The notes below the pieces were generated by a model. The model had not been told where the DNA came from and made no database searches. It was given only the letters and a program-made list of their open reading frames with translations. This document shows, piece by piece, positions 13,274 to 57,353 of a stretch of DNA of 64,000 bases; position 1 is the stretch's first letter; the number at the start of each line of letters is the position of its first letter. Location of the stretch: the NCBI GenBank assembly GCA_964544885.1, contig CAZJDX010000004.1:100293-164292 (forward strand). Reading direction: 5' to 3'. The stretch comes from an uncultured Flavobacteriales bacterium (lineage in GTDB: Bacteria > Bacteroidota > Bacteroidia > AKYH767-A > 2013-40CM-41-45). Position numbers and translations under genes: made by a program.

Positions 13274-15127
13274 TTATCTCTTTTTGGGAGGTTGAATTCC
13301 GCGTTCTTTAGCCATCGTTTCCAGTCTCTGCTGAAAGGACGATTTTTTCACCGGTTTTTTCTTGTTTTCCTGAATCTGGCGGTGTATGGCATCTTCGTCG
13401 ATGAAAGCCTTGAAAAGGTATTGCTGTCCGAATCCGAAAATATTGCTCAGGAAGTAGTAATAGCTCAGTCCGGATGAATAATTATTAAAGAATCCCAGGA
13501 AAAATATGGGCATCAGGTACATCATCCATTTCATCTGGGGATTGGTTGCCGTTGCCATCTGCAGATTGACCTTTGTATAGATAATGGTGGAAATGGTCAT
13601 CAGCAGGGTAAAGAGACTCACGTGCGCGCCGTAAAAAGGTATCTTGAAGGGAAGGTCCAGGATATTGTCATAAGTTGAAAGGTCAGTTGCCCAAAGGAAT
13701 GGCTCCTGCCGGAGTTCGATGGAAGAGGGAAAGAAATTGAACATCGCGATAAGGATTGGCATCTGTAATAAACCGGGTATGCATCCTCCAAGCGGATTAA
13801 CACCTGCCTTGCGGTAAAGTCCCATTACCTCTTGCTGTTTCTTCATCGGGTCATCCTTGAACTTCTCATTGATTTCCGTCATTTCGGGTTGCAGCACTTT
13901 CATCTTGGCCTGCGACTTGAATGAACCATAGGTGAGAGGAAGCAAGATGATCCTCACAAGAATAGTGAGCAGGAGGATGATGATCCCGTAGTTGAAATTG
14001 AAACTGTTGAGAAAATTAAAAGTGGGAATCACCAGGAACTTGTTTACCCATCCAAAGATGCCCCAACCCAGCGGTATCAGTTTCTCAAGGTTCAGGTCGT
14101 CGATTTTCTTAAGGGTCTGGTAATGGTTGGGACCGGCATAAAATCGCATGCCATAGCTCTCTTTTTCTTTGCGGTCATAAGGGAGGGAGAAGGAGGCGGA
14201 CATGCTTTTTACATATTCACTGTTCTCATCGGTGATGGTTTCCACCACGGGAGAGTCAAAAGTTTCATCGGCGATCAGTGCGACTGTAAAGAAGTGTTGT
14301 TTAAAGGCGACCCATTTCACACGGGTCTTGAGACTTTCCTTTTCATCACTCGTCGGACTCAGGTAATCCACATCCTCCTCCGCGAAGCGGTAATAAATGG
14401 TGGCGCTTGCGCGCTCATTCTCCAGATTATTTTCTTTCCGTGTCAGCTGGTCTTTCCAGTCCAGATTGATATAAGAAGCATTGGAAGCTATGATATCCTG
14501 CATACCTACCGCGTTGATTCTGAAATCCAGCAGGTAAGAATCTTCAACCAGGCTGTAAACGTATTCAATATACTTTCCTTCACCTGCAGGCAGGCGCATG
14601 CTTACTTCATTGCTCTTTCCTGCCGTACCGGCCGACTGAAAATACAAATCTTTGGTATTGATGATCCTGTTGCCCGCGGAAAGGGACAGGTTGAATTCAC
14701 CGGAATCTCCGGACATCAGGATAACCGGTCTTCCATCCCAGGTCTGATAATTCTTCAGTTCTATTCCTCTGATCCTTCCTCCATGGGAAGAGATCTCAAC
14801 CTTTATCAGTTTATTTTCCAGACTGAGAATCTGTTCAACTCCTTCAGCGCCTCCTGCAAATTCGCCATACATCTCCTTATTGCGGTCAGGCGCGATACTG
14901 TCAGTTTGCAGAGAATCAGTCCCGGCCTTCTGTGAAGCGGTATCGCTGTAAGGTACCGTTGAGGAAGCTGCCGCAGCCATGGCTTCAAGTTTAGCCTGGG
15001 CCGCTGCAACCGAGTCCCTGCGATCCTGCATGGCCCTGATCTCTTCTTTACTCGGCTGCGTATAAATCGTGTAGGCAATGATCAGCAAGCCTATTAACAA
15101 CAAACCTATTATTGACTGTCTGTCCAT
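13274..15127 (-). CDS. yidC: Membrane protein insertase YidC (long Bacteroidota form with a large periplasmic domain)
   Basis: C-terminal 60-kDa inner-membrane insertase core (LLPLTYGSFKSQAKMKVLQPEMTEINEKFKDDP…QEVMGLYRKAGVNPLGGCIPGLLQMPILIAMFNFF). The N-terminal TM plus large periplasmic domain matches the 617-aa length. Confidence 0.93.
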   Translation of the reverse strand: MDRQSIIGLLLIGLLIIAYTIYTQPSKEEIRAMQDRRDSVAAAQAKLEAMAAAASSTVPYSDTASQKAGTDSLQTDSIAPDRNKEMYGEFAGGAEGVEQILSLENKLIKVEISSHGGRIRGIELKNYQTWDGRPVILMSGDSGEFNLSLSAGNRIINTKDLYFQSAGTAGKSNEVSMRLPAGEGKYIEYVYSLVEDSYLLDFRINAVGMQDIIASNASYINLDWKDQLTRKENNLENERASATIYYRFAEEDVDYLSPTSDEKESLKTRVKWVAFKQHFFTVALIADETFDSPVVETITDENSEYVKSMSASFSLPYDRKEKESYGMRFYAGPNHYQTLKKIDDLNLEKLIPLGWGIFGWVNKFLVIPTFNFLNSFNFNYGIIILLLTILVRIILLPLTYGSFKSQAKMKVLQPEMTEINEKFKDDPMKKQQEVMGLYRKAGVNPLGGCIPGLLQMPILIAMFNFFPSSIELRQEPFLWATDLSTYDNILDLPFKIPFYGAHVSLFTLLMTISTIIYTKVNLQMATATNPQMKWMMYLMPIFFLGFFNNYSSGLSYYYFLSNIFGFGQQYLFKAFIDEDAIHRQIQENKKKPVKKSSFQQRLETMAKERGIQPPKKR

Positions 15128-15192
15128 CAGGAATTTTTAGAGAGGCCGCAAAGATAAAAAAAAAGGCTTGCCTTCCCTGTTGGAATGGGTCC

Positions 15193-15224
15193 AAAAAAAA
15201 GCCGGAAGAATCTCCCGGCTTTTC
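15193..15224 (-). terminator. Rho-independent terminator downstream of the 2194-aa gene (minus strand: AAAAGCCGGGAGAUUCUUCCGGCUUUUUUUU)
   Basis: Inverted repeat gccgg…ccggc with an A8 run on the plus strand, which is a U8 tail on the minus strand. It begins about 17 nt after the stop codon at 15241. Confidence 0.5.
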
Positions 15225-15240
15225 ATTAAATAATTTGTTT

Positions 15241-18200
15241 TTAATTCTTTATGAACCTGACCTGTCGTGGGTTTTCTGTCCTGTCAACATGATCGAGTTT
15301 CAGGTAATATACACCCGGTGAAAGTTGTTCTATATTGCTCTGAAGAATATTGGCGCCGCGCTGGGTTCCGAATCTTTCCCAACTGACCAGTTTTCCATAC
15401 ACATCCAGAATCTGCACATTGATCACACTTTCATATTCTTCAAAGAAGGAATAAGTGATGGTGGTTCTGGCAGGATTAGGATATACTGAAAGCGCGTCTT
15501 TGGTCTTCAGGCAGTTCAGGGCGACTATATCAGAAACACTTTCTGTTCCGTCTATATCCACCTGGCGTAATCTGTAATACACAACTCCGTTGCAAGGATC
15601 TTCATCCGTAAAATTGTATTCTCTTGTTTCGGTAGTAGTACCTGCGCCGTAACCATTGATCTGCGCGATCTTCACGAAATTTTCTCCATCATAGCTTCTT
15701 TCAAGAATGAAGTAATCATTGTTGATCTCGGATGCCGTGATCCACTCACAACGGTTACCTCTTTCGGTATTCTCGGCCCGGAAGGAGATAAGCTCAATCG
15801 GAAGTGCGGTACCGAACTGCACCGTGGCAAAGTTGAAGAACCCGGTATTGCTTGCATCATAGGCATAACGGCGTGATGCAGGTTTTGGCGGAGGTGGGAA
15901 GGTCGGGTTACATGGACAGGTTGCTTCCATCGTCCAGCTTCCTGAACCGTTTACATCTTTCATAATGGTCAGTGCGGCGAATGATCCGGCTGCTCCGGCT
16001 GTAAAGAAGTCAATATAAGTACCTGCCGGAACAGCCAGGGTGGTAGCTGCGCTGAGAGTAACGGTGGTAGCCGTAACTGCCGTGATGGTGGCTCCGGGAG
16101 GAACACCAAATCCCAGTACATTCATACCCACACTCAGAGCAGGGAAACCGGGAGTCGCCGTTGATGCAAAGGTGAGTACGGTTCCCGGAGCGCCCTGCGC
16201 AACACTTACGGCATGACTGATGGATGCCGGCGTAGCCGTTCCCACGTAGTTTGAATAGGTACGGTTGTACAAAGTCATGGTATAGGTACCCGTAGGAGTT
16301 GCTGTACTGGAAATGGTATTCCAGTAACCGTGATTCAGCGCCTGACGAAGACTCCAGTTATAGCCCGAACATTCAAGCGGCGGATAAACTCCGTTCACGA
16401 GCGGCAGGTTGGCTCCGCCCCAGCGCAGGAAGCGCATCAACAGATTATAAGGAGCGCTTGGAGGAGTGGTGAATTCAATATTCGCTCTCTCCCAACCGGT
16501 GATGGCATCCCCGACAGGGAAATCATAACTGGCAACGCTGGTCCCAAAATAACGGCGCATCCATCCTTCAACATAACTGGCTGTATTTCCAATGGTCGAA
16601 GCGGCGCCGGCGGTATTGGTAATTACAACTTCATTCGTACCGGTAATGATCTTACCATTGGTAAGAGTCAAAACCCCCGCGGTTCCCAGTACCATATTGT
16701 TAAAGGCTCCGGCGCTCAACGTCACTGAGGAGTTGATCGTCTGGGCCATTCTCACATTGTTCAGCGTAAGAAGACTTCCATTATTGGTGAAGGTCTGTGG
16801 CGCCGCACCTATAAAGGAAAGCATGGATCCGGCAGGTGACTGAAATGTTGAGGTTCCGTTGAAGTTCGTGAAGTTTCTTCCTATTCTCAGATCAAACCCA
16901 TTGCAGTTAAATACACTCGTTCCGTTGACAGTACTAAAGTCCCTGGCAACCTCCACGATAGCATTCATCTGGACATTGCCACCGCTTTTATTGATGACAA
17001 GATTACCCATTCTGCTTGTGCCGGTTATATTTCCGTTAATGGTTTGATTGGCACTACCGATAAATTCAATGATAGATGTTGGATCAGCAATTAAAGTCCC
17101 ATCGTTTGTATAATTACCGCAAATCTGAAGAGTAACCCCTGCATTGATGGTGAGTGTGGCTCCGGGTCCGATATAAACATCCTTAACCTGCTCATTGGCT
17201 GTCAGTACCGGTTGGTTCAGGGGACCGGAGTTAATATTCGCACTGGTCACGCAACTGGGCGTACCGCATCCTCCCCAGTTAGCCACATCCGACCAGGTGC
17301 TGTTGGCACCGCCGGTCCAGCTTAAGGTGGCCGGTGAACCGAAATTCACCGGTGAGGAGGTGCCAAAGTCAAGGGTAAATCCGGCTGCAAGACCTGATGT
17401 ATTATTGATCATGAGCAGGTAAGTTTCACCGGCAGTGACCAGGATATCCTGTGAGAATGGAGGATTAACCGGCAGGCAAATGGTACAGGTTCCTATACTC
17501 TGCATTCCCGTTGTACCTGCCGTGGTGCTGTAATTACAAGCCGCAATGGTGGCTGCATTGCTCAGAACCTGGGCGCAGGCATTGGCTATGGTCGGATAGC
17601 TGGAAATATTCCAAAGCACCCAGTCATAATTAATATTGCTGGTCGGGATGATATCAAAGAACAGGTTACCGGTTGTAGCGATGTTGAAAGTGAACCAGGC
17701 TGAATTATTTTCTCTTGCACCTGTGGCTGGCACGCAGCCATAGGCAGTGGCTGTATTACCCAGGTCACAGATATTTCCTGCTCCCTGGAAGCCGGGACTT
17801 CCATAGGTTGTTTGCTGGGCGCAGATCTGTGTAGGCAGCACGCAATCCTGTTGCGGTATGGGTGCCAGCGGAATCGAATTATCATAAATCGTTATACCGA
17901 AGGTACCGGTGAGCGCATTTCGGCCGTCTACAACCACATAATAGGTTACGCCAGGAGTAAGACCTGTGGCAATCAGCTCAGAGGCAAAAGTGCTCACTCC
18001 GCATTGTGTATAGTCATCATTACAACTGACGGCGCCAAACGGTACGAGGGAGAAACAGAAAGCGCCCTGATAGATGGCTATTTGTGTATTGGTGAGCGTT
18101 CCAAGTGTGGTCCTTATTCTTACCTGTCCGGATGCAGGTGCTACGAAAGTATACCAAACCGTATTGAGTTCGCCTGCTCCTGAATTTGCCCAGCATGATG

Positions 18201-21200
18201 GGGCAGCACCGGCGCCATCCGGAGGATAAGGTTCACTCAGACCATTACTGCAGGAATTATATCCGGTATAGGTCGTTCCCAGCGTGACCAACTGAGCGTT
18301 ACAGGGAAGATCGTTGCTTGGCGGTCCAAGAGGACATGGGTCTGTCACACATATTTCAAAACCACCGCTGAGGCCGTTCTTCGCCCAGATCCTTATGTAT
18401 AGTGTTTCACCCGCTGTTCTTCCTGTAAGTGTAAGTGAGGGCATGGCTGGATTCACACTGCTGTTATCATTACATCCGATCTGCGTAAATGCCGTACTGC
18501 AACTGGCCGCTGAATAAACCGCCATCACCGCATCAGGGATGTTGATACTTCTTGTGTCAATGGAAACCTGGCCACTGGCGGGTACGGTAACCGAGAACCA
18601 AACATCCCTGCTGGTGGTATTGAAGTTTCCGCAGGTGGTGACCGTTGCCGGAACACCTGCCTGCACCGTGTTGGTGGCGCAAAGAGTAGTATAAGGTTTA
18701 TAGATACATCCGGCGCTTACTGAGAGCGGGATTGCCTGACATGGATTGTCATTGGGAACAGCCGTACTGCATGGAGTCTCAACACAGAACCCAAAATCAC
18801 CTGTACGGGTAGTGTTACCATTCCATATCCAGTGTCTTACATAAAGTATTTCACCCGGTACCAGTCCGCCTAGTGAGATATAAGGCATCAGTCCCGGACC
18901 ACTGAGGTCGTCGCAGGCAAGTTGTGTAAAGGTCGAGCAGTTGGTAGAACGGTAAACAGCCATCTGATCATCGGTAACACTGCCAGCGGCAGTAACAAAG
19001 TTCATGGTAGTAATTCCGGGAGGAACTACAACGCGGACCCAGGTATCATTACTTGGATTCCAGCCCGGCGCCCAGAAAGGATCGCAGTTTACCGGTGCGG
19101 GAATACCAGCCGTTACCGCAGTGGGTGTCTGACAACGAAGTGAGAGTGTGGTATAAGTATTACAGGTTCCAGTTGTAACAGGGAAGTCGTTTGTGATCTG
19201 GCAGGGTTCATCAGCCTGGTATGGATTGGGCGCAGAAAGAGGGGAGGTCTCATAGGCCGCCAACTGGAAGGTTCCTTCGTTAGCCGGCAGTGTTGATCCA
19301 TATGGCCAGACTCGCAGCCATAAGGTCTCTCCCGGCGTGAGTCCTCCGCAAAGAGTTATCTCCGGTGCCAGTCCCGGTCCCGCATCATCATTGCAGGCCA
19401 CCTGGGTCAGTGAGGTACAGGTTCCGCGATACACCTGCAGTACCGGATCACGCATACCGCCGGTGGTAGGACCGACCAGTCCGGTAATGGTAAGACCACC
19501 GGATGGAGGAACAATGATGCGGATCCATACGTCTATCCTCGGGGCGGTGGCGCAGGTATTTCCAGGCATACCGGTGGAAGTGGTAGCGCAAACATTGGTA
19601 AAGGTTGAATACACCGGTACTCCTCCGGTAGTGACAGTCAATGGCGTGGCGCTGCAGGGTTCGTCGTATGAATTACAGGCGGAACTGAGACAGAATTCAA
19701 TGCTTCCGTTAGACGCATTGTTTTCCGACCATACTCTGACCCAAACGACTTCACCGGGTGTTCTTCCGGTGAGAGCGACAAGCGGGAAGTTGGCATTGAT
19801 ACTCGAACCGTTATCCGCGCAGGCGATCTGGGTAAATGGACCTGCGCAACTTCCGGCTGAATAGACCGCCATAGCCGCATTGCCCATTGGATTGGTAGCG
19901 CCGGGGCGGGTATCAATCACCACGTTACCTGCCGCAGGGATCGTCACACGGAACCATATATCCCCACCGTTATAATTTCCGCAGCTTGGAGCGGGAACTC
20001 CGGTGGTTGCCGATGCGCAGTTATTCGAATATCCCGCGGCTGTCCAGGTACAGGTCGCGCCGCCGACAGCAAGCATTGGTACACCGGCATCACAGGGATC
20101 ATTATTCACCGGAGCCAGTCCGGCAGTGGCGATCTGTAAGGTGAATGGGATACAAGGCGGGGTGCCGTTGTTGTCAACCACTATGTAATAGGTGTTTCCT
20201 ACAACCAGACTCACGGATGAAATACTTACCGAGTTGCCGGTAGAATTGTTTGATGCGAGACAAACAACACCAGCGGCGGTAGGACAATCGTTCAGAACGA
20301 AGATCCCGGGATTGGAACCCGCGCCTGTATTGGTCACGTTAATGGAAATACAGGAGTTGGCGATAGAGGTAGGAGTATAGGTATAGACAAAGTCTTCTCC
20401 GTTCATGTAACTGCTGCTGCAGCCATGAGTGGAGTTATAATCATTTACTGCTCCGCAGGTTGTCTGGCAGTTTAAAGTAAGCGGGAGTGTAGTGGAAAGA
20501 GCCGTTGCATTGGCACAATTTGAGGCTCCGTAATTTTCCACGCAGATCTGGAATTCACCCTGTGCGGAGGCGTCGCCCGCAACACGAATATAGTACTGCG
20601 TTGCGTTACAGGCATTGGCCGGATCGCTGATATCTAAAACAGCATTGTTCGCGTTAATGGTGCCTCCTGTGCTGGCACAACCCATGGATACCAGCGCGCC
20701 GCAGGCACCGGAATATACTTCAACTGAAGTGGTAACTCCTCTGCATAAGGCTGCAAAATCTGTTGTGACCCGGAAGGAGGTGATGTTCGCCGGTTTGGTG
20801 AACCGATACCATACATCATTGGTATTGCCTGCATCGCATGGAGCGGCCGGGGTACCTGTATTGGTAGCACCGATGAGAGTTCCAATGGTAGGCGTGCAGG
20901 CTCCGGCAGGGATGCTTCCCAGATTAACCGCGTTAGCACATTGATCGTTGGCGGGTACGCCTTTGTCAAAAGTGATGTATTGAACCTGGGTTATGACAGT
21001 ATTAGCAGAACCCAGATTATTTATATTGGATGTCTCAACGGTTTTGGAAGCGCTTCCGTTCGTCCAGCCGGGCAGATTCACCGGAGCGGTGCTTTGCACG
21101 ACGGAATAAAAATCACCTCCGCAGGTATCGGCAAAACCTATGCTGGCACCTCCTGAAGTTCCGGAATAAGGGCCGTATGCCTGTGGGAGAGTCGTTACGA

Positions 21201-21825
21201 TAGGTTGATAGAAATACTGTATCCTGCCTCTGTTAGCTACCGTGGTATGCGTGGAAGAATAAAAGCGAACGCACATCTTGGCAAGGTATGCTGAACCTGC
21301 ATTCTTGTCCCAAACTACGTTCTGCCATTCCACATAGAATATTCCGTTAGCCAATCCCCCAATGGCACGGTATCCTGCTCCGGTGATGAGGTCATCCCAG
21401 AGTGGCGCGATCAGCGGGCCGTCTCCGGCAGGAATTGCTGTCAGATTATTGGCAGGCGTTGGACCAATGGGTGCAGGAGTACCAGCAGGCGCATTGGTAA
21501 GGATGATGAATCCGTTGGATGAAATGTGAAAGGCGCTATAATCCCTTCCTCCGAAATTCACGCTGAAGGCGGCCGTTCCGACTATGGCGATAGCGGGTGT
21601 GATCTGTTCATCGGTACCGGCAGCTATGGGTGAAGCCGTAAGTGCGCCGATGGTCGGATAAGCGATGTAGCCGTAGGTATCTGTATAGGTAATCCCTCGA
21701 CCGGCCTGGGCAAAACTGGTGTTCCACTGAAGGGAAATCAGCGTGAACAAGGCAAATAAAGTTTTAAGGAGAGTAGTTTTTTTCCACATGGTCAGGTATG
21801 GCTTAGCGTATGGTTTTTTAATCAT
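15241..21825 (-). CDS. Giant T9SS-secreted surface protein (2194 aa) with at least 7 tandem Cys-rich PPC-like (pre-peptidase C-terminal-like) repeats, a central beta-helix-like region and a type-A Por/T9SS C-terminal sorting domain. Probable adhesin. The true start is likely the internal Met of MWKKTTLLKTLFALFTLISL at about 21789, which gives a canonical signal peptide.
   Basis: A repeated ~95-aa unit carries conserved motifs (PC…A/L…C…DVW[YF]R[FV]T…G.V.I.T…AVY…C…C.D/ND) seven times: NDVWYRFT, GDIWFRVT, IDVWIRII, NDTWVRVV, RDVWFSVT, NTVWYTFV, NSAWFTFN. The C-terminal ~80 aa (…SVYPNPARTTITYSF…LSPGVYYLKLDHVD…) is a T9SS CTD. Composition is Thr/Gly/Ala-rich. Confidence 0.85.
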   Translation of the reverse strand: MIKKPYAKPYLTMWKKTTLLKTLFALFTLISLQWNTSFAQAGRGITYTDTYGYIAYPTIGALTASPIAAGTDEQITPAIAIVGTAAFSVNFGGRDYSAFHISSNGFIILTNAPAGTPAPIGPTPANNLTAIPAGDGPLIAPLWDDLITGAGYRAIGGLANGIFYVEWQNVVWDKNAGSAYLAKMCVRFYSSTHTTVANRGRIQYFYQPIVTTLPQAYGPYSGTSGGASIGFADTCGGDFYSVVQSTAPVNLPGWTNGSASKTVETSNINNLGSANTVITQVQYITFDKGVPANDQCANAVNLGSIPAGACTPTIGTLIGATNTGTPAAPCDAGNTNDVWYRFTKPANITSFRVTTDFAALCRGVTTSVEVYSGACGALVSMGCASTGGTINANNAVLDISDPANACNATQYYIRVAGDASAQGEFQICVENYGASNCANATALSTTLPLTLNCQTTCGAVNDYNSTHGCSSSYMNGEDFVYTYTPTSIANSCISINVTNTGAGSNPGIFVLNDCPTAAGVVCLASNNSTGNSVSISSVSLVVGNTYYIVVDNNGTPPCIPFTLQIATAGLAPVNNDPCDAGVPMLAVGGATCTWTAAGYSNNCASATTGVPAPSCGNYNGGDIWFRVTIPAAGNVVIDTRPGATNPMGNAAMAVYSAGSCAGPFTQIACADNGSSINANFPLVALTGRTPGEVVWVRVWSENNASNGSIEFCLSSACNSYDEPCSATPLTVTTGGVPVYSTFTNVCATTSTGMPGNTCATAPRIDVWIRIIVPPSGGLTITGLVGPTTGGMRDPVLQVYRGTCTSLTQVACNDDAGPGLAPEITLCGGLTPGETLWLRVWPYGSTLPANEGTFQLAAYETSPLSAPNPYQADEPCQITNDFPVTTGTCNTYTTLSLRCQTPTAVTAGIPAPVNCDPFWAPGWNPSNDTWVRVVVPPGITTMNFVTAAGSVTDDQMAVYRSTNCSTFTQLACDDLSGPGLMPYISLGGLVPGEILYVRHWIWNGNTTRTGDFGFCVETPCSTAVPNDNPCQAIPLSVSAGCIYKPYTTLCATNTVQAGVPATVTTCGNFNTTSRDVWFSVTVPASGQVSIDTRSINIPDAVMAVYSAASCSTAFTQIGCNDNSSVNPAMPSLTLTGRTAGETLYIRIWAKNGLSGGFEICVTDPCPLGPPSNDLPCNAQLVTLGTTYTGYNSCSNGLSEPYPPDGAGAAPSCWANSGAGELNTVWYTFVAPASGQVRIRTTLGTLTNTQIAIYQGAFCFSLVPFGAVSCNDDYTQCGVSTFASELIATGLTPGVTYYVVVDGRNALTGTFGITIYDNSIPLAPIPQQDCVLPTQICAQQTTYGSPGFQGAGNICDLGNTATAYGCVPATGARENNSAWFTFNIATTGNLFFDIIPTSNINYDWVLWNISSYPTIANACAQVLSNAATIAACNYSTTAGTTGMQSIGTCTICLPVNPPFSQDILVTAGETYLLMINNTSGLAAGFTLDFGTSSPVNFGSPATLSWTGGANSTWSDVANWGGCGTPSCVTSANINSGPLNQPVLTANEQVKDVYIGPGATLTINAGVTLQICGNYTNDGTLIADPTSIIEFIGSANQTINGNITGTSRMGNLVINKSGGNVQMNAIVEVARDFSTVNGTSVFNCNGFDLRIGRNFTNFNGTSTFQSPAGSMLSFIGAAPQTFTNNGSLLTLNNVRMAQTINSSVTLSAGAFNNMVLGTAGVLTLTNGKIITGTNEVVITNTAGAASTIGNTASYVEGWMRRYFGTSVASYDFPVGDAITGWERANIEFTTPPSAPYNLLMRFLRWGGANLPLVNGVYPPLECSGYNWSLRQALNHGYWNTISSTATPTGTYTMTLYNRTYSNYVGTATPASISHAVSVAQGAPGTVLTFASTATPGFPALSVGMNVLGFGVPPGATITAVTATTVTLSAATTLAVPAGTYIDFFTAGAAGSFAALTIMKDVNGSGSWTMEATCPCNPTFPPPPKPASRRYAYDASNTGFFNFATVQFGTALPIELISFRAENTERGNRCEWITASEINNDYFILERSYDGENFVKIAQINGYGAGTTTETREYNFTDEDPCNGVVYYRLRQVDIDGTESVSDIVALNCLKTKDALSVYPNPARTTITYSFFEEYESVINVQILDVYGKLVSWERFGTQRGANILQSNIEQLSPGVYYLKLDHVDRTENPRQVRFIKN

Positions 21826-21893
21826 GGTATGGCGATTGAATGGAGATCATGGCAGCTTAACAGCCAATCACTCAATACATAATTTCAGAACCT

Positions 21894-21901
21894 CAAACTT
21901 A
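21894..21901 (-). promoter_or_regulatory. Candidate Bacteroidota sigma-A -7 box (TAAGTTTG on the minus strand) upstream of the giant T9SS gene
   Basis: Minus-strand TAAGTTTG matches the TAnnTTTG consensus, about 70 nt upstream of the track ATG and about 105 nt upstream of the likely true start. A TTTG element lies 15 nt further upstream, which is shorter than the canonical spacing, so this call is weak. Confidence 0.25.
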
Positions 21902-22204
21902 CTGATTTTAGAGGCTCAAAGCAAGAAAAATATCTCTTGATTATCAACAGGTTGCCTCGTTTTTCAGGTGTATGTGAACGATCCTGATTCAAGGGTGAAC
22001 GAATGCAAATCTTGGGTGAAAACGCCGACCCTGTTTCAGTACAATTATTTCTGTATTGAGGAACATGAAGAAATGACCCCGATCCGGAGAATTGTTAATA
22101 AAAAAAATGACGGATTTTGGTATTGATCCGGATGAATTCAAGTTCAATCACACATTAAAAAATCCTGAACAATACCCGTATCAACTTAAAGCAGAAAATA
22201 ATTT

Positions 22205-23911
<1,707 letters not shown>

Positions 23912-43702: not shown

Positions 43703-44449
43703 CTACCAGTTTTTTTCGAGGTAGGCTAAAAATGGTTCTTTGCGCCGGGTGGAAACTTCAATTTGTTTGTTATCCGAAAGTGTGACGAAACCACCTTTTC
43801 CCCGATTGTAGCTTTTAATAAAGCGGGTATTTATAAGGTGTGAATTATGTACCCTGAAGAAACCGTGATCCGTGAGTAATTCCTCAAATTCTTTTAAAGT
43901 TTTGGCAACCATAATTTTGGATTGATCCTTTAAAAAAATGTGAGTGTAGTTTATTTCGCTTTCAAGTCTTACAATTTCATCTGTATTCAGATAGGTATAA
44001 CCGGTTAAAGTCGGTACCGCTATCCGTTTGGATGTATGATGAATATTATGAATCAGTGTTTCAAATTTCCTGGTTTTTTCAATTTCAGAAATCCTTTTGC
44101 TAAGTTTTCCGACAGCGCCGGAGAGGTCTCCCGCATCCACAGGTTTCATCAGATAATCAATGGCGCTAAATCTGAATGCCTGAACTGCATACTTCTCAAA
44201 GGCAGTAGTAAAGATTACCTCAAAGTTTATTTCTTTAAACTGCTGAAGCAGATCAAACCCGGTTCCGTCGCTCATAGAAACGTCCAAAAAAATAAGTTCG
44301 GGTTTCAGTCTTTCAATACCATTTTTTGCGTCTTTAACATTTTTAAAACTATCCATCAGCAGAATGCTCTGCTTACAGTTCTCTTCAAGCAACCTGCTGA
44401 GACGGTCAATGCAGTGTTGTTCATCGTCTATGATTATTGTTCGTATCAT
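43703..44449 (-). CDS. LytTR-family two-component response regulator (REC + LytTR DNA-binding domain)
   Basis: REC domain (IIDDE…FLDVSMSDGTGFDLL…) followed by a LytTR domain (…IVRLESEINYTHIF…FRVHNSHLIN…). Confidence 0.9.
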   Translation of the reverse strand: MIRTIIIDDEQHCIDRLSRLLEENCKQSILLMDSFKNVKDAKNGIERLKPELIFLDVSMSDGTGFDLLQQFKEINFEVIFTTAFEKYAVQAFRFSAIDYLMKPVDAGDLSGAVGKLSKRISEIEKTRKFETLIHNIHHTSKRIAVPTLTGYTYLNTDEIVRLESEINYTHIFLKDQSKIMVAKTLKEFEELLTDHGFFRVHNSHLINTRFIKSYNRGKGGFVTLSDNKQIEVSTRRKEPFLAYLEKNW

Positions 44450-44460: not shown

Positions 44461-46557
44461 TTAAAAGTTGCTGATGAGCGGAAGTTTTACTTCTACACGC
44501 AATCCTTCAGTTAGATTGGAAAAATTTATTTCTGCAGCAGATTTTTTAATTTTGTTAAGAATATCAATTCGTGCCTGGGTTATTTTCATGCCCATTGAAG
44601 ATTTTTCATGAGCGGAGGTGGTTTGCGAAAAATTTCCTAAACCGGGACCATTATCATCCACCCTGCATTTTATCATATTTCCTTCCCGCACAATACTTAT
44701 GTTGATCCTGCCTTCCGTTTTTTCCTTATTGGCAATACCATGCCAAATGCTGTTTTCAACAAAAGGTTGCAGAATCAGAGGAGGGATCATCGTATTTTCA
44801 GTATCAATTTCAGAATCTACGTATATGGTATAGCTGAATTTATTTTGAAGCCGCATTGCCTCCAGTTGAATGTAATTTTCTAAGGCTTTCAAGTCTTTAC
44901 TTAATGTAATTTCTTTCGATTCTGAATTTTCCAGGATCTGGCGGATAAGGGTTGCAAATTTTACAAGGTATGTATCTGCGCTCTTGGTGTCATTTTTATT
45001 TATATAATCGCTTATTGAATTCAAAGAATTAAAAATAAAATGCGGATTCATTTGCGCTCGCAGGGCTTTCATCTCCGTACTGGTTACCTCTGCATTGAAT
45101 TCAGCTTCTTTCTTTTCAAACATGGCATCGCGACGTTTTTTGTACGACACAAAAATACCTGTTCCGGCCAGTAAGATGAGCATGCTGCCTGCAATGGAAT
45201 AATTACGGATCATTTGTTCTTTTTCGATTTGTGCACTTGAAATAGCCTGTTGCTTATCGCTTTCAGCCATAATCAAAGCTTCTTTTTTATCAAATCGAAA
45301 CTGCGTTTCCATTTTAATGATATCCGTTTGCTTATCAATATTGAAAACACTGTCTTTCAGGCTGGAATATTGCATTGCGAATTCATAAGCCTGTTGATAG
45401 TCCTTTTTCCTGTAGAATAGTGTACTCAGGCTTTCGGTTATTTCCGCTTGCAGAGCAACATTACCTGTATTTCTTAAAATTTCCAGTGCATTTTGTTTAA
45501 GACGTATTGCTTTTGTGGATGAATCCTGAATTTTGAATTTTCTTAGCAAGGATAATGGTGCCTTTGAATAAATAGTTCCGATTTCATGCAGCATAAAGGC
45601 AGTGTTGATTTTGTCACCCAGCTCATCGAATACCTTATATGCTTTAGTTAAGTAATCCAAAGCATTCTCAAGCTCAAGCCGGTTGCTTAGTAGTATTCCA
45701 ATGTTAGCCATGTTGCTGGCTGTTCCGAACCGGTAATTTGCTCTTTGATTTATGCTTAAAGCGTTCTGATAACTTTTCAAGGCATTCTCAGCCTCATTTA
45801 TACTCTCGTAAATATTTCCTAAATTGTTAAAGCATTTGGCAAGATTAATATCATCTTCGGTCCTTGTGTAAATTTTAACTGCATTTTGCTGATATTCAAT
45901 TGCCTTTTTAAAATTTCCGGTGTTTTTAAAGAGGATTCCGATATTGGAATAAGTATTTGCAATATTATTACTGTCAGAGGCATTTTCATATAATTTCAAG
46001 GAACGTAAGTAATATTCAAGAGCTGTTTCATAGTCTGACATATTCATATATACAACTCCGATATTGCTCAAGATAGCCGCCTGAAGAACGGAATTTCCCA
46101 GTTCAACCTGAAGAGCAAAGGCAGTTTGATAACTTTTCAATGCTGATGAATAATCCGACAAGTTAGAGTGGCAGATTCCTGTATTTGTCGCGATACTCGC
46201 ACATGCCTGTAGTCTGCCATTCTTTTCGTTAATCGAATACGATATTTTGTAATATTCAATGGCCAGCGAGTCTTTTCCTGCCTTAGCATAATTGTATGCT
46301 TTAGCAAAATATGCCGTTGCCAGCTTTGGTTCATGTTTGATTTTTGTTGTCAAACTAATGGATGAATCGGCATAGAGTATACCGGTCTCCGGATCAAAGT
46401 CAGCATAACTCAACGAAATGTTGTTCAGGACAGTGGCACGGACGGAATCTGACTGGGTATGCTCCTTGAGTAGTAGGAGAAGTGAATCAATTTCTGCCTG
46501 ATTCGCAAACGTGTAATTCATAAGAAAAAGACAGAGAATAATAATTAAATTTTTCAT
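44461..46557 (-). CDS. Sensor histidine kinase of LytS/YehU type (His_kinase 5TM-less form) with a periplasmic/extracytoplasmic TPR-repeat sensor region. Operon partner of the LytTR regulator.
   Basis: Signal peptide, about 8 TPR-like repeats (repeated A..Y…A..Y hydrophobic patterns), one TM, then the His_kinase motif (NPHFIFNSLNSISDYI) and HATPase_c (…ISIVREGNMIKCRVDDNGPG…). The stop/start spacing to the response regulator is 12 nt. Confidence 0.88.
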   Translation of the reverse strand: MKNLIIILCLFLMNYTFANQAEIDSLLLLLKEHTQSDSVRATVLNNISLSYADFDPETGILYADSSISLTTKIKHEPKLATAYFAKAYNYAKAGKDSLAIEYYKISYSINEKNGRLQACASIATNTGICHSNLSDYSSALKSYQTAFALQVELGNSVLQAAILSNIGVVYMNMSDYETALEYYLRSLKLYENASDSNNIANTYSNIGILFKNTGNFKKAIEYQQNAVKIYTRTEDDINLAKCFNNLGNIYESINEAENALKSYQNALSINQRANYRFGTASNMANIGILLSNRLELENALDYLTKAYKVFDELGDKINTAFMLHEIGTIYSKAPLSLLRKFKIQDSSTKAIRLKQNALEILRNTGNVALQAEITESLSTLFYRKKDYQQAYEFAMQYSSLKDSVFNIDKQTDIIKMETQFRFDKKEALIMAESDKQQAISSAQIEKEQMIRNYSIAGSMLILLAGTGIFVSYKKRRDAMFEKKEAEFNAEVTSTEMKALRAQMNPHFIFNSLNSISDYINKNDTKSADTYLVKFATLIRQILENSESKEITLSKDLKALENYIQLEAMRLQNKFSYTIYVDSEIDTENTMIPPLILQPFVENSIWHGIANKEKTEGRINISIVREGNMIKCRVDDNGPGLGNFSQTTSAHEKSSMGMKITQARIDILNKIKKSAAEINFSNLTEGLRVEVKLPLISNF

Positions 46558-51435: not shown

Positions 51436-52446
51436 ATGAAAAAAATTAACGTGCATCTGCTCGTTCTGCTACTGTGTTGTTGTACTTGTACCGTATCGGC
51501 TCAAAATATTGTGAAAGCAGAATATTGGATAAACAGCGATCCCGGTATGGGCTTGGCAACAGATATCCCCGGAATTACACCCGCCCTTAATGTTGCAAAC
51601 CTGGTATTCTCTGTTCCCGCAACCATCAGTCCGGGTGTACATACGCTTGGACTTCGCAGCAAGGATTCAAACAATCGCTGGAGTCATACGAACATGTTTC
51701 CCGTACTTGTTTTAAGTCCGCCTTCTAATCCGATTATTGATAGTGTTGAGTATTTTATAAATACTGATGCAGGTTTTGGAAACGGAACAAAGGTATTGGG
51801 TATTACTCCCCAACAAACTATTGCTAATCTGGCCTTGACTATCCCCGCATCTCTTACAACAGGTATCCATACGATTGGTGTCCGGTCAAAGGATACTGAT
51901 GGAAATTGGAGCCATACCAATTTTTATCCGGTTCTGATAAATGATTCCACATCAGCAGGAGTTATTGTTGCCATTGAATATTTTTGGGATGTTGATACGG
52001 GTTTTTATCAAAACCTGTCCTATACACCTACAGGTATTGTAAGCGACCTCAACAATGAATTGATGAATATTAATGTTCCATTTAATTTGCCATTTGGACA
52101 ACATACTGTTTTTATGCGAAGTCGGGATAGCAGAGGTAGATGGAGTCATACCAACTATTCTTCGGTAAATGTAGTGGATTCGAACTCTGTTGGCATGCAT
52201 GAAATGGAACACAGCAGTATTACAGTCTATCCAAATCCATGTATTGATCACATTACAGTCTCATCAGTAAATAATCAAAAAATTCGAGTGATTCTGTACA
52301 ATGAAAGTGGCCAACTCATTCTCGACAAAAGCATAGAGCATTCAGAGCAAATTAATACCTCACAGTTTGCTCCGGGTGCATACACTGTATTCATTTGGTC
52401 AGATCAAAATAAAATTTATAAGACAACTCTTCTCAAAACAAGATAG
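51436..52446 (+). CDS. T9SS-secreted protein built from three tandem ~85-aa repeats of an unassigned domain plus a type-A T9SS C-terminal domain
   Basis: Repeat starts are EYWINSDPGMG…, EYFINTDAGFGNG… and EYFWDVDTGFYQN…, each ending …RSKD(S/T)…(R/N)WSHTN(M/F/Y)…V. The C-terminus (…ITVYPNPCIDHITVS…LYNESGQLI…APGAYTVFIWSD…) is a T9SS CTD. Confidence 0.75.
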   Translation: MKKINVHLLVLLLCCCTCTVSAQNIVKAEYWINSDPGMGLATDIPGITPALNVANLVFSVPATISPGVHTLGLRSKDSNNRWSHTNMFPVLVLSPPSNPIIDSVEYFINTDAGFGNGTKVLGITPQQTIANLALTIPASLTTGIHTIGVRSKDTDGNWSHTNFYPVLINDSTSAGVIVAIEYFWDVDTGFYQNLSYTPTGIVSDLNNELMNINVPFNLPFGQHTVFMRSRDSRGRWSHTNYSSVNVVDSNSVGMHEMEHSSITVYPNPCIDHITVSSVNNQKIRVILYNESGQLILDKSIEHSEQINTSQFAPGAYTVFIWSDQNKIYKTTLLKTR

Positions 52447-52817: not shown

Positions 52818-55800
52818 TCAATACTTAATTAATTTTACCGGCTTTTCCGGAGGAACCGAGATAAAATACACTCCTTTTAGTAAAGTGCTTATATTGACAA
52901 TAGTGATTTCCGGTTCTATTTTTCCTGTAAATAATTTTTGCCCAAGCAAATTATAGATTGTGAAATCAGAACCGGCCAAATGACTCTTTGTACGGATCTG
53001 AAATTCATTTTTAGCAGGATTTGGAAAAACAATGACATTGGAATTGAGATTTTCCTGCTTCCTTAATAATAAATTGCTGAGGGTGGGAGTCGGCTCGAGA
53101 TAGTATATCGATGTAGTTCCATCCGGATACCTTCCCCAGGTTGAACGGTTGCTTTGTATTGAAAAAGATAAACTATCAATCAACAAATAATCATCCAATC
53201 TTCTCTGATAAATTCCCAGTGATTCGCCGGAAGCATTTAGTTTAAACGCAACATGCTTGGCGCCTTGTTCAATCTGATTGTCGGCCCACAAAATATAATA
53301 TCCTCCGGCAGGAATAATAGTTAATGCCGGGAAATTCAAAGGTAATTGATGTTTGTCGTAATTTGATATTTGATCCGTTAAATAAAGTCCGCCGAGATTG
53401 ATCGGACTGCCGCTGCTGTTAAAAATTTCAAACCAGTCATCATATTCATTGAAATCGTCTGCTATGATTCCGGTGTTAGAAGCCATTACTTCATTTATAA
53501 ATAGACCACTGAAATCAGGTGGAAGAGTGTTAGCAGCTCCGGAAGAGCCCATGAGTAAAAAACTTTCGTGCCAATCCTGAACGAGATTTCCTTCTTTTGA
53601 TTCATTCAGTTCCAGGGTTGCCCCTCTGCCATCAGCCAATGCCGGCCATGGCCTGGAATCGGAATATCTGATGCTATGGATCAGGTTGCCGTTATGATCG
53701 TATAGTGAAATCTTATCGGATTTATTATCCAATTCATAAAATAAGTTTCCGCATATATTATTTACAGCAGGATGGTAGGATTTAAATAAAAGCGTGTCCT
53801 CGCAAATCACCAGATAGTCACCCGGCAGAATAACTGTATTTTGCTTTAGTGAAAAGTTATTTTTTACAGTACTTAATCTCCATCCGCTTACATCAACCGC
53901 CTGGCTGGTTCTGTTAAATATTTCTACCCAATCACCCGTATTGTAATTGTCAGCGGAATGGTAGTTTATTTCATTTATATGTACAGTTAACCCATAATTG
54001 CCATGATGAGTATAATAGGCGCCTATATCAGCAGCAGAGCTGTCAGGGTCAGGTGGTGACAGTGGGTTTCCCGAATCAATACAGGGTGAGGTGTTTTTAA
54101 GCTGCAGATTACCTGTTGTTGCATGAATAAACTGAGGGTCAGCAAAAATATTATGATTGCCTGTAAGCAATTCTTTATCTGAAAGAGAATAGCTGATTTC
54201 TACTTCTGATTTATCGTCAATCGAAACAGTTTCATAGATTGACCCCGCCAAAATGGAGTTTTGAATAAAAGCTTTTCCCCCGCCCCTAAGTGTACTCTTT
54301 TCATAACATGCAATGGAATGGTGGTTTCTGTAGAAAGTATTTTGGTTCAGATAGGCAACTGATGAACTGTCTTTAACTCCGATTCCTAAACCACAGTCGT
54401 ATATCAGGTTGCGGTAGATCGTTGCATTTGACTGTGAGCCAATAGAGATACCTTTATCTGTACAGTTATAAATTATGTTATTTTCAACAATATTGTTGAC
54501 GGAATTTATTCCAAAATCAATTCCATCGCAGTTCGTGCCTGAGAAATCATGGATATAATTGTTCTTAACCACAGCATTAGTAACTCCCTTTAAGTCCAAT
54601 GCATCAGTATCCGTAGCTTTATTGCCATTGAAAGAGCAATCTTCAACGATTGGGTTATTAATATTGTTTAAACTGATGAATCCATTGCAAGGATTGAGGG
54701 TGTGAAAGGCAGAGTTCCCAATATATACATTACCACCCTCTGCATAAAATGGCGGCCCGCCATCTGAAATATCCGAGTGTTCAAATCGTATGTTTGCATT
54801 GTAAGCGGAAATGGTCGAAAAATATTTTATCGGGTCATTACCGTAACTTCCATTACGAATATTTACATATTGTATAAGAATCGAGTCGCCTGGATTATCA
54901 GCAATGATACTGCCCCACCGGATACTTGCTTTATCATTTTTAGATGAATAAATTGTGTCGGCACGGATACTTATCAAACTGTCCGGCGTGCCATGTATTT
55001 TTAATCCACCTTCAACATAAATAGATTTATTCTCGCAAATAAATATTTCAACACCAGGTTCAACTATGAGTTTTGCGCCAGGTTTAATAATTACATCCTC
55101 TAATCCATACCAGGGTGAATAAGCCACACTGAGTATGGTATCATTTTGAATCAGTGGAGGTATTATACTGATTGGGTCAGGAGCAAAGACTGCCGTAATG
55201 CTTGTGTCGCTTACCGGAATAAAGACCATTTCCGGAGATGTGTTTCCTGATCCTTGCCATTCAATAAATTTATAGCCCGGTTTGGGAAAGGCTTTTAATT
55301 TTATTGGAATGTTTTTAAAATATTGGCCAGAATATATTGAGTCTTTTAATAATACGCCACACAAAGATACATTTCCCCCGCCGGAAATATTTATTTCAAC
55401 ATGTGCACTATCCTGAATTCCGAATTGAGTAGTAATATGTTGACGAAGATGTTCTCCGCGATATTGTAAAAAAGTTTTGATAAAATCAATGTTGGAATGC
55501 CAGGATGACAGCGACAGAGGCGTACCCCATTTATTAATGTGCCTTGGCATTTGAAGACTTAGAAGTGCTTTTAAACTGTCTGCAATGGGCAAAGTAACAG
55601 CGGGATTAAATACTGTATTCAAAAAAGTGGATGTACGTTGTATAAAATCATTTTTGAACCCCTCATTTTCCAGCAGGTTTCTGAATAAAAAAGTTGACCA
55701 ATCAGGCAGGTTTCCGGTAATTCCTGAAACTTTACTCAACGTGTTGTCCATGTAATCGTCTCCGCCTAATTTTCCAAATGCATGTTCATTGTCGTTTGTA

Positions 55801-57353
55801 ATCCAGCGCCACTTGCTTTCAGTATCATTGTTTCTCCAATACTTATTATTATAATCAACAATCCAGTAGCCGATAAATATTTTATGAATTATGTAATTGG
55901 TAAATTCATGAATGTCGATTTGTTCAGAAACGTAATGGTAATTATCGTCCACACTCAGGTCATTGTTTTCAATAAAGTAAATCAGATTATTATAATGGTT
56001 TCTACTGCCTGAGACGACGCTTATACTGTCTTCGAGAAGATCAAGGTTGGCATTATTGGTGTAGTGATTGTTTGAAATATAGTTTTCATCCAGCCTTTCT
56101 CTTATTTCATAAATGCCGTTGTACTGTCCATTGATAAAAACAACACAAGGCTGATATTCCTGATAATCCACGTCTATTTTATTTTTTATCAGAGAGGTGG
56201 ATAAGCCCTCACGGAAATAGGAAAGATTATAATCGTTACCGCCATTTCTTAAGAGAAAGGAATAATAAACGACGGATTCTCTGTCATTAAATAATTTATA
56301 GTTTATTTTATCATCGCCGTATTTTGATTTTACTTCGAGAGAAATTGGTCTTTGAGGTAAATTGAAAATGCTTGATCCGAATAGTTTCGCACCGGCATTT
56401 ACATTAAATTTTCTTTGTTTATTCAGATCAAAATATTCAACATAAGCCGGAACTTCTCTACCCTTCATTGCATTTTGCAGTATGCCGTATTCAAAGTCAT
56501 AGAAGTTTGAAATGTCTGTGGAAATTGAAATAACAGGAAGGTCGATGTTTTCATTTATGAAATAGGATTTAGTAATGACCTTACCCGGTAATTTTCCCGG
56601 TTGGTACGCACGAGCTTTGATAACATAATTACGTGCAATGTTAAGGCTTCCGGTAAATACAGGAGAACTTTCAACCGGTGTTGTTCCATCAATGGTAAAC
56701 CGTATGAGAGAATTGGGTTCCGAAGAACTGATTTGCAATTGTTGAGCAGAAGGGTAAAAACCCTCAGAAATTGAGAATATCGGTTCGGATGCATAATTCA
56801 GGGACGTTGAACCGAAAGATGAATTAATTTTACCGGGCGTAGGTTCACTGTAATAATACCATCCCTGGGAATTTTGATTATTTCTTCCAATTGAAATATC
56901 ATATTCCTGTACATCTAATTTCAGACTATCCTCAAGTTCTTCATGATTGTTATATAGATAAATTGTTTCGCCCAGACTGCTGACCTTAAAGTTAGCATGT
57001 AAAGAGTTTATGGTAATTGTATCATTTTTGTATTTACTGTACGCGCGTTCTCCGGGATATTTGGATTCCCCGTCCGTCCATATAATCAGATATTGATCTG
57101 CTGACAAGACCTGGGATGGCAGTATCCATTTTCTCTTTATATCAGGATCATCAGTAATAGAATAGTTTTGGAGATTGATAGCGTATGCGGCTGTATTGTG
57201 TAACTCAATAAAATCCGAAAATTCTCCAAAATCAGGATCGCTTAAAACGGAACTGTTAAGGGCAAGAATTTCATTTATTCTGATTTGCGCATTTAAACAC
57301 AGGCTCAGTAATATGAAAACAATGAGCAGTGAATTTTTCATAGGATTAGTCAT
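52818..57353 (-). CDS. CotH-kinase-family protein with three lamin-tail domains (LTD), a central parallel beta-helix region and a T9SS C-terminal sorting domain (1511 aa)
   Basis: LTD motifs: INEILALNSS…DFIELHNT…INLQNYSITDD (N-terminal), VHINEINYHS…DWVEIFNRT…VSGWRLS, and LFINEVMASN…DWFEIFNSS…LGGLYLTDQ. CotH core: …VVFINGQYNGIYEIRERLDENY… and …NNKYWRNNDTESKWRWITNDNEHAFG (the GKW-W-DlD-sFG-like signature). Beta-helix repeats (…NNIVENNIIYNCTDKGISIG…). C-terminal …VFPNPAKNEFQI…IYNLLGQKL…KGVYFISV = T9SS CTD. Confidence 0.85.
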   Translation of the reverse strand: MTNPMKNSLLIVFILLSLCLNAQIRINEILALNSSVLSDPDFGEFSDFIELHNTAAYAINLQNYSITDDPDIKRKWILPSQVLSADQYLIIWTDGESKYPGERAYSKYKNDTITINSLHANFKVSSLGETIYLYNNHEELEDSLKLDVQEYDISIGRNNQNSQGWYYYSEPTPGKINSSFGSTSLNYASEPIFSISEGFYPSAQQLQISSSEPNSLIRFTIDGTTPVESSPVFTGSLNIARNYVIKARAYQPGKLPGKVITKSYFINENIDLPVISISTDISNFYDFEYGILQNAMKGREVPAYVEYFDLNKQRKFNVNAGAKLFGSSIFNLPQRPISLEVKSKYGDDKINYKLFNDRESVVYYSFLLRNGGNDYNLSYFREGLSTSLIKNKIDVDYQEYQPCVVFINGQYNGIYEIRERLDENYISNNHYTNNANLDLLEDSISVVSGSRNHYNNLIYFIENNDLSVDDNYHYVSEQIDIHEFTNYIIHKIFIGYWIVDYNNKYWRNNDTESKWRWITNDNEHAFGKLGGDDYMDNTLSKVSGITGNLPDWSTFLFRNLLENEGFKNDFIQRTSTFLNTVFNPAVTLPIADSLKALLSLQMPRHINKWGTPLSLSSWHSNIDFIKTFLQYRGEHLRQHITTQFGIQDSAHVEINISGGGNVSLCGVLLKDSIYSGQYFKNIPIKLKAFPKPGYKFIEWQGSGNTSPEMVFIPVSDTSITAVFAPDPISIIPPLIQNDTILSVAYSPWYGLEDVIIKPGAKLIVEPGVEIFICENKSIYVEGGLKIHGTPDSLISIRADTIYSSKNDKASIRWGSIIADNPGDSILIQYVNIRNGSYGNDPIKYFSTISAYNANIRFEHSDISDGGPPFYAEGGNVYIGNSAFHTLNPCNGFISLNNINNPIVEDCSFNGNKATDTDALDLKGVTNAVVKNNYIHDFSGTNCDGIDFGINSVNNIVENNIIYNCTDKGISIGSQSNATIYRNLIYDCGLGIGVKDSSSVAYLNQNTFYRNHHSIACYEKSTLRGGGKAFIQNSILAGSIYETVSIDDKSEVEISYSLSDKELLTGNHNIFADPQFIHATTGNLQLKNTSPCIDSGNPLSPPDPDSSAADIGAYYTHHGNYGLTVHINEINYHSADNYNTGDWVEIFNRTSQAVDVSGWRLSTVKNNFSLKQNTVILPGDYLVICEDTLLFKSYHPAVNNICGNLFYELDNKSDKISLYDHNGNLIHSIRYSDSRPWPALADGRGATLELNESKEGNLVQDWHESFLLMGSSGAANTLPPDFSGLFINEVMASNTGIIADDFNEYDDWFEIFNSSGSPINLGGLYLTDQISNYDKHQLPLNFPALTIIPAGGYYILWADNQIEQGAKHVAFKLNASGESLGIYQRRLDDYLLIDSLSFSIQSNRSTWGRYPDGTTSIYYLEPTPTLSNLLLRKQENLNSNVIVFPNPAKNEFQIRTKSHLAGSDFTIYNLLGQKLFTGKIEPEITIVNISTLLKGVYFISVPPEKPVKLIKY

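Follow-up and report, generated by a model that had tools for sequence, protein, structure and literature searches.

The 64,000-nucleotide stretch of DNA analysed here (hereafter the window; assembly GCA_964544885.1, contig CAZJDX010000004.1, positions 100,293 to 164,292), from an uncultured Flavobacteriales bacterium, carries a giant gene whose product we read, on balance, as a large surface adhesin exported through a type IX secretion system (T9SS). The protein is composed of a NIDO-like head, eight beta-sandwich domains, a beta-solenoid, a further sandwich, an FN3-like domain and a C-terminal sorting domain (CTD), and its alleles and segments appear to be exchanged by recombination. The gene is the sole long open reading frame (ORF) in its interval (2194 codons, 15241..21825, minus strand), and Thr (12.2%), Ala (10.2%), Gly (9.8%) and Asn (7.9%) are abundant in the protein, which has 72 Cys, 62 of them within residues 286-1525. 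Few groups of surface proteins in environmental Bacteroidota are as poorly characterised as the giant T9SS cargos, and a complete domain map is now available for one of these, as follows (AF2, AlphaFold2; pLDDT, predicted local distance difference test; aa, amino acids).

21790..21825, minus: 12 codons upstream of the likely start, probably untranslated (start of the identical NCBI protein P0001 and ortholog conservation)
21709..21789, minus: putative Sec signal peptide, residues 13-39 (MWKKTTLLKTLFALFTLISLQWNTSFA, then Q), read directly from the sequence
20971..21708, minus: head domain, residues 40-285, NIDO-like, predicted homolog of the RemA/RemZ N-terminus (family profile)
20530..20970, minus: R1, residues 286-432, PF23759/PPC-fold domain (PF23759 20.9 bits)
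20131..20529, minus: R2, residues 433-565, divergent copy (hhalign 99.1%; Pfam PPC E 0.034)
19678..20130, minus: R3, residues 566-716 (45% identical to R6, BLASTP 1.5e-32; PF23759 23.2 bits)
19231..19677, minus: R4, residues 717-865 (PF23759 15.3 bits; lineage-specific extra copy relative to the ~1600-aa relatives)
18790..19230, minus: R5, residues 866-1012 (the only clear copy without a Pfam match; lineage-specific extra copy)
18331..18789, minus: R6, residues 1013-1165 (PF23759 30.5 bits, above the gathering score)
17872..18330, minus: R7, residues 1166-1318 (PF23759 19.3 and PPC 16.9 bits; position conserved in nearly all relatives)
17326..17871, minus: R8, residues 1319-1500, divergent enlarged copy (hhalign 96.1%)
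16591..17325, minus: right-handed parallel beta-solenoid, residues ~1501-1745 (model pLDDT ~96, short periodic strands)
15901..16590, minus: beta-sandwich, residues ~1746-1975 (AF2 secondary structure, pLDDT 52-90)
16018..16164, minus: mini-domain insert of ~50 aa in this sandwich, residues ~1888-1936
15526..15900, minus: FN3/Ig-like domain, residues ~1976-2100
15244..15525, minus: T9SS type A CTD, residues 2101-2194
15190..15230, minus: intrinsic-terminator-like hairpin and T8 run (RNA fold -20.2 kcal/mol, z = -3.7)

Secretion signals

The assignment to T9SS made in the preliminary description was confirmed by two families: the domain at the extreme C-terminus scores 31.6 bits against TIGR04183 (cut-off 23; NCBIfam) and 41.3 bits against PF18962 Por_Secre_tail (Pfam), above both cut-offs, and superposes on solved CTD structures. 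By curated cut-offs, the giant protein is thus a predicted T9SS type A cargo and a member of the PF23759 family (see below). Four further CTD-bearing ORFs are present in the 64-kb window, and the organism therefore probably uses T9SS; none of the core T9SS genes sprA, porV and gldKLMN lies within the window. The relatives of the giant protein all come from Bacteroidota metagenome-assembled genomes (MAGs), and close relatives are named “T9SS type A sorting domain-containing protein” at NCBI. PorV takes over type A CTDs as they leave the SprA translocon (PMC12618676; PMC10994853), and RemA is a type A CTD adhesin found both anchored to the surface and released (PMC12618676).

At the other end, the annotated start had been suspected to be too long. 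The identical NCBI protein (P0001, 2182 aa) begins with MWKK, and MWKK and the A-Q cleavage site are kept in six orthologs, with the residues upstream of M13 variable; the exception is the related locus L023, with a near-identical 5' flank, in which the 12 upstream codons are conserved. We therefore place the start at 21789, and the true start is probably M13, giving a precursor of 2182 residues. By direct reading, the putative Sec-type signal peptide that starts at M13 consists of a KK n-region, a hydrophobic core and a cleavage site between FA and Q, and all orthologs keep A-Q at the cleavage point. In Bacteroidota, Q typically follows the signal-peptide cleavage site, a rule that the giant protein fits.

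The cysteine-rich repeat array

The preliminary description had proposed at least seven copies of a Cys-rich unit of ~95 aa with strictly spaced cysteines and a D-x-W-[YF]-R-[FV] block. The recurring unit is real: the relaxed pattern D-x-W-[YFI]-x-[FVI] matches five sites (residues 337, 622, 765, 927 and 1074), the block being spaced by ~145-160 aa, and the array consists of eight tandem domains (residues 286-1500), in agreement with the proposed minimum. The unit is longer than was thought, with a measured period of ~147 aa (133-182), and Cys spacing is conserved in the core only (4-6 columns), the single copies carrying 6-9 Cys.

Whole-protein self-BLAST gave the identity match only and was replaced by seeded phmmer and hidden Markov model (HMM) searches. 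With R6 (1011-1165) as the seed, phmmer recovered five other clear copies with E-values of 3e-30 to 4.5e-5 (one-sequence database), and an HMM built from the phmmer-found copies delimited six clear copies, R1 and R3 to R7, with the borders listed above. The clear copies are mutually 21-45% identical, with pairwise BLASTP E-values down to 1.5e-32, a similarity far beyond chance. The divergent copies R2 and R8 were compared, as ortholog profiles, by hhalign with a second profile that combined 614 clear copies found in homologs, and both are homologous by this profile-profile comparison (R2, probability 99.1%, E 8.9e-19; R8, probability 96.1%, E 3.6e-9). The consensus over these 614 domain instances, ND.C..A...C...DVWYsFtA...vYSGtCgsLT.v.C...GLT.G.TYYvRV...G.F.IC, retains six conserved Cys and a DVWYxF block.

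The best sequence family for the repeats is PF23759 GBD_T9SS_assoc, with 58.3 bits against a gathering score of 27 over four stretches of the whole protein. Scanned singly, R6, R3, R1, R7 and R4 yielded the scores listed above, R6 being the sole copy that exceeds the gathering score by itself, and R2, R5 and R8 gave no match to PF23759. The PPC family (PF04151) reaches 27.2 bits with the whole protein (gathering score 25.9) without any single significant stretch, and single copies score 12-17 bits. The label “PPC-like” given earlier to the repeats is apt for their fold, which is that of PPC and collagen-binding domains; by sequence, PF23759 matches them best and the PF04151 signal is marginal. 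No peptidase domain was found anywhere in the giant protein with Pfam or NCBIfam, and the repeats do not occupy the post-peptidase location typical of PPC. HYR and PKD were rejected as the repeat identity, with no Pfam match to either.

Solenoid, sandwich and FN3-like domain

The order of a beta-helix, an FN3-like module and a T9SS CTD, which had been proposed from the sequence, was recovered in the structural model, the CTD also by its family matches. The AF2 model of residues 1319-2194 (pLDDT 85) contains, in this order, the R8 sandwich, the solenoid, a second sandwich modelled with less confidence, an Ig/FN3-like domain and the CTD. Pfam fn3 (PF00041) gave no sequence match, and the FN3-like domain has only the FN3 fold in common with that family. 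A Foldseek search with the same model was uninformative, the top match being an archaeal S-layer protein with a TM score of only 0.12.

The solenoid raises the alternative that the protein is a secreted polysaccharide-degrading enzyme, in which the solenoid would be catalytic (pectate-lyase- or glycoside-hydrolase-like) and would be brought to a polymer by the eight PPC/GBD-like sandwiches, serving as carbohydrate-binding modules. We consider this unlikely. No lyase, hydrolase or Beta_helix family of Pfam or NCBIfam matched residues 1501-1830 even at E<=5, and sequence identity to enzymes is only 6-14%. Across 47 relatives, the solenoid positions conserved in >=80% hold Gly, Leu, Asn, Phe, Thr, Gln, one Lys and one Ser, and no Asp, Glu or His is conserved in this alignment, which argues against a conserved catalytic site. 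Furthermore, the top structural match of the solenoid is a non-enzymatic adhesin, SRRP, in line with our reading of the giant protein as an adhesin.

The mini-domain within the second sandwich is recognised by the motif L-x-VGM-x-V-x-G-x-GIP-x-G-[AT]-T-[IV]...T-[IV]-T-[LI]-S, and the BLAST high-scoring segment pairs to the ~1600-aa relatives stop at ~1862 and restart at ~1950, spanning it. At the sandwich position, the mini-domain is present in the closest orthologs only; the motif VGMNVLGFGVPPGATITAV...TLS is found at other positions in the homologs P0007, P0017 and P0023, inside other domains (N-terminal head). It matches no Pfam family and resembles a mobile insert module.

An N-terminal head of the RemA/RemZ type

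The head links this uncharacterised family to the adhesin head of RemA and RemZ. A family profile (A2) matched the PDB chain 8gl6_D (“RemA”) with an E-value of 1.2e-36 (profile positions 22-337, chain positions 5-330); the substrate in 8gl6 is RemZ, a RemA homologue (PMC10994853). The head domain of the homolog P0009 matches Pfam NIDO (PF06119) with 28.5 bits (gathering score 25), at model positions 4-59 of 186 only, that of P0072 reaches 24.3 bits against the same gathering score, and the head of the giant protein aligns to the P0009 head with a BLASTP E-value of 8e-19. By itself, the giant-protein head has no Pfam NIDO match at E<=10 and no Pfam match of any kind, and nothing useful came from searching the PDB by single sequence, whether the query was the whole protein or the head, RemA not being matched. 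The invariant residues of the head are S102, N104, G105, A140, W143, D144 and the ASIG motif at 227-230, including the motifs SSNG and APLWDD, and its AF2 pLDDT is ~80-90. Judged by the profile, the head is a homolog of the N-terminus of the Flavobacterium gliding adhesins RemA and RemZ.

Alternatively, the giant protein could be a functional equivalent of RemA, a mobile adhesin of gliding motility that would travel along the cell, propelled on the gliding track after being loaded there. It shares with RemA the N-terminal domain (common to RemA and RemZ), the type A CTD, and a similar size and modular build. However, no lectin family is among the Pfam matches, even at E<=5 on fragments, the remaining architecture is unrelated to the RemA chain, except for the CTD and one stretch where the solenoid begins, which reaches a marginal 13 bits (i-Evalue 0.089), and there is no sign of gliding within the window. 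We regard gliding as an improbable function, about on a par with the enzymatic one, and retain the reading as a surface adhesin.

Copy number and the wider family

Repeat arrays of this kind had been expected to vary in length through recombination, which we did not see among close relatives: there are no DNA repeats and the copy number is constant. The six clear copies occur at equivalent positions in all five orthologs of 71-77% identity that were checked (P0002-P0006), and a 95%-identical allele (P0265) has 2193 aa and a single 1-aa gap. Repeat slippage and assembly collapse were rejected because searches for tandem and direct DNA repeats in the giant gene found nothing relevant.

The ~1600-aa relatives have three clear copies compared with six here, and these match best R1, one repeat of the R3/R6 type, and R7; R3-R6 are therefore an old expansion of one middle domain, specific to this lineage. 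Two further repeat copies are present in P0007, and the PF23759 domain occurs in 1 to 21 tandem copies across the homologs retrieved. Length thus varies only at deep divergence, and not through DNA repeats. The module formed by R8, the solenoid and the sandwich (query 1319-1960) recurs in proteins of ~1000-3100 aa; with clustering at 50% identity, at least 170 clusters match it at E<=1e-30 and 1004 at E<=1e-3.

Probable allelic replacement at the pyrG-yidC locus

The most interesting aspect of the locus is the pattern of allelic replacement. The giant gene lies between the genes for CTP synthase (pyrG) and YidC. Compared with the window, the L023 DNA (JGI 3300009868) is 89-98% identical in pyrG, in the adjoining intergenic region and in the codons of the signal peptide, and 95-98% identical from the stop codon through the terminator into yidC, but only 54-83% identical over the coding region of the mature protein. 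The borders are sharp, at ~21684 (codon ~48) on the 5' side and ~15241 on the 3' side. The proportions of synonymous (pS) and nonsynonymous (pN) differences between the window and L023, given as Nei-Gojobori proportions, follow the same division.

pyrG: pS 0.31, pN 0.006
yidC: pS 0.16, pN 0.015
Giant gene: pS 0.74 (saturated), pN 0.16

The near-identical flanks and the divergent coding region in L023 indicate allelic replacement. The protein and its neighbour give opposite orders of relatedness: the window protein is 75% identical to that of L023 and 77% identical to those of L001 and L024, whereas pyrG is 99% identical in L023 and 90% in L001 and L024. A second relative, L026 (JGI 3300048839), served as the concordant control. 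Its flanks are more distant (pS 0.46-0.64), and its giant protein is 95% identical to that of the window, congruent with the flanks (pS 0.63, pN 0.035, pN/pS 0.055), so that within one allele type the protein appears to be under strong purifying selection.

In addition to the replacement as a whole, segments of the protein differ in their closest relatives (P0004 is the giant protein on L023).

Residues 313-387: 95% identical to P0004
Residues 688-912: 84-95% identical to P0003 and 52-68% to P0004
Residues 1813-2112: ~90% identical to P0004

Taken together, the window/L023 pattern indicates a putative allelic replacement combined with a domain-scale mosaic, and would provide a clean example of surface-protein replacement between near-identical housekeeping flanks. 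A diversity-generating retroelement was rejected as the source, the divergence extending across the whole mature protein and not a short variable region.

Such hypervariability of alleles is typical of S-layer genes too, and the protein could be an S-layer-like structural coat protein, forming mainly a protective layer and not binding ligands; its large size, its Thr/Ala/Gly/Asn-rich composition and the top Foldseek match would agree with this. That match, however, is weak and stems from generic Ig-like domains, there is no sign of high expression or self-assembly, and among the relatives, which have one copy or two, the number of domains differs greatly, which leaves the coat protein the least likely of the alternatives considered here.

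A possible, still tentative, extension of the adhesin reading is that the slot between pyrG and yidC is a “surface-identity” cassette site, at which divergent adhesin alleles would be long maintained by negative frequency-dependent selection (for example, on a phage or grazer receptor) and swapped by homologous recombination. The alleles may then range from single or tandem genes of 1.6 kaa (thousand amino acids) to 2.5 kaa, with 3 to 8 clear PPC-like domains, and the breakpoints may be anchored at one end in the codons of the signal peptide and at the other in the terminator; the window allele, with its eight domains, would be one mosaic product.

Proposed function

As a surface adhesin, the precursor would cross the inner membrane via Sec, and disulfides would form among the ~60 Cys of the repeat region. 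The CTD would dock on PorV and the SprA translocon, leading to export, and would then be removed, the protein remaining attached to the surface through its C-terminal end or being released in part, like RemA. The solenoid and the string of beta-sandwiches could form a stalk that keeps the N-terminal head, and the sandwiches that bind carbohydrate or protein, at a distance from the cell, so that the protein acts as an adhesin. Homologous recombination would exchange entire alleles and also segments of the size of a domain, within a stretch bounded by the conserved pyrG side, which extends through the signal-peptide codons, and by the side of the terminator and yidC. Frequency-dependent pressure on an exposed surface protein, for instance from phages or grazers, would be expected to leave such a pattern of exchange.

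Several points weigh against this reading. The host is uncultured, and we infer the adhesin (or S-layer) role. The link of the head to NIDO and RemA comes from the family profile and transitivity, the single sequence matching neither. Beta-helix folds are also catalytic scaffolds, so that an enzymatic role keeps some probability despite the lack of conserved acidic residues in an alignment of 47 sequences; type A CTD cargo, moreover, may be released instead of anchored. Finally, allelic replacement is drawn from one discordant pair (the window and L023) and one concordant control (L026), and scanning metagenome contigs for exact matches, once to the 5' signal-peptide region and once to the 3' terminator, gave no further alleles.

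Locus, flanking signals and base composition

The flanking genes are on the same strand as the giant gene (pyrG, 22205..23818; yidC, 13274..15127). Farther out, one side has genes for HPPD, a thioredoxin-like protein and a sortilin/BNR protein, and the other has genes for PAP2 and a TonB-dependent-receptor-like protein. The order pyrG-giant gene-yidC is also found in L001, L002, L005, L021, L023, L024, L025 and L026 (Bacteroidota MAGs and metagenome contigs), in a synteny block pyrG-X-yidC-HPPD. In L018 and L019 (GCA_003388485.1 and GCA_003389295.1; 4648-15772), the pyrG-yidC slot contains two tandem paralogs of 1616 and 1611 aa and a small 362-aa CTD protein on the opposite strand, and in L021 it contains one 1625-aa copy and a 332-aa CTD protein; this small CTD gene is absent from the window. 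P0009 and P0032 are paralog-like copies in unrelated contexts. In L026 (11696-13535), yidC is split into two overlapping pieces (542 and 96 aa), probably through a frameshift or an assembly error.

The terminator-like hairpin is located directly 3' of the giant stop codon, between the giant gene and yidC, and is 100% identical in L023; it was overlooked by a pattern-based terminator scan. The giant gene is probably monocistronic, with its own terminator. Upstream, the intergenic region to pyrG measures 379 nt and is 96-97% identical in L023, and its conservation reaches L002 in part (74% over 140 nt, window 21883-22022). A sigma-70 promoter scan gave matches at chance level only, and no two-box promoter of the Bacteroides type precedes the giant gene, where a box resembling the Bacteroides -7 element, TAAGTTTG, stands alone at 21901..21894. 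An Rfam search of 12-25 kb had no matches. The antisense ORFs had been dismissed as spurious, consistent with the absence of Pfam family matches for those at 19337..19864 and 14123..14935.

The giant gene had also been described as compositionally distinct from its flanks, with horizontal acquisition as a possibility. Its GC content is indeed above that of the flanks (~0.51 vs ~0.45), but the excess is all in codon position 2 (GC2 0.54 vs 0.35-0.40), GC at codon position 3 (GC3) being 0.495 compared with 0.48-0.56 in the neighbours. Confined to position 2, the excess reflects the amino-acid composition and is an effect of the Thr, Ala, Gly, Pro and Cys codons. Horizontal acquisition of the giant gene was rejected on the basis of GC3 and the conserved synteny.

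Elsewhere in the window, a low-GC block at 44000-59400 (GC 0.36-0.39, GC3 0.32-0.36 vs ~0.50 elsewhere) is a candidate horizontally acquired island, with the following genes.

44461..46557, minus: TPR/His_kinase protein
51436..52446, plus: 336-aa T9SS CTD cargo
52818..57353, minus: 1511-aa T9SS CTD cargo with CotH-kinase, Lamin-tail-domain and beta-helix
57636..59324, minus: 562-aa SBBP-repeat T9SS CTD cargo

Another cargo in the window is an S8 subtilase of 966 aa with a T9SS type A CTD (30320-33220, plus strand).

Comparison with known systems

Close known counterparts are RemA and RemZ of Flavobacterium johnsoniae (Fjoh_0808 and Fjoh_0803; 8gl6 chain D), the ~230-aa N-terminal domain of which is homologous to that of the giant protein by the profile comparison. 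As far as can be predicted for the giant protein, they have in common a Sec signal peptide, a type A CTD and the build of a large modular surface protein exported via SprA/PorV. RemA has a lectin domain (PMC12618676), whereas none was detected in the giant protein, and neither the eight PF23759/PPC-fold domains nor the long solenoid are present in the middle of RemA/RemZ. With the head shared and the lectin domain lacking, the giant protein is therefore not a RemA orthologue.

Multi-domain T9SS proteins with PF23759 contain the same domain, although only R6 of the eight copies here passes the threshold singly, and this lineage is set apart by the particular architecture, from the NIDO-like head to the CTD, and by the fixed pyrG-X-yidC position. 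The collagen-binding domains of the clostridial collagenases ColG and ColH, and PPC, have 11-20% sequence identity to the giant-protein repeats, which are larger (133-182 vs ~70-115 aa), contain 6-9 Cys and have no attached peptidase. Beta-solenoid adhesins (the binding region of the L. reuteri SRRP and the passengers of VacA p55, Vag8, Pet, Ag43 and TibA) are 6-14% identical to the giant protein; unlike the autotransporters and SRRP, it has neither a C-terminal beta-barrel (no Pfam or NCBIfam match) nor LPXTG, and its export would proceed via the T9SS CTD. With PPC/collagen-binding domains, FN3 and autotransporter passengers, the giant protein has only folds in common. Domains, route of secretion and population-genetic pattern each belong to a known kind, and no change of paradigm is called for.

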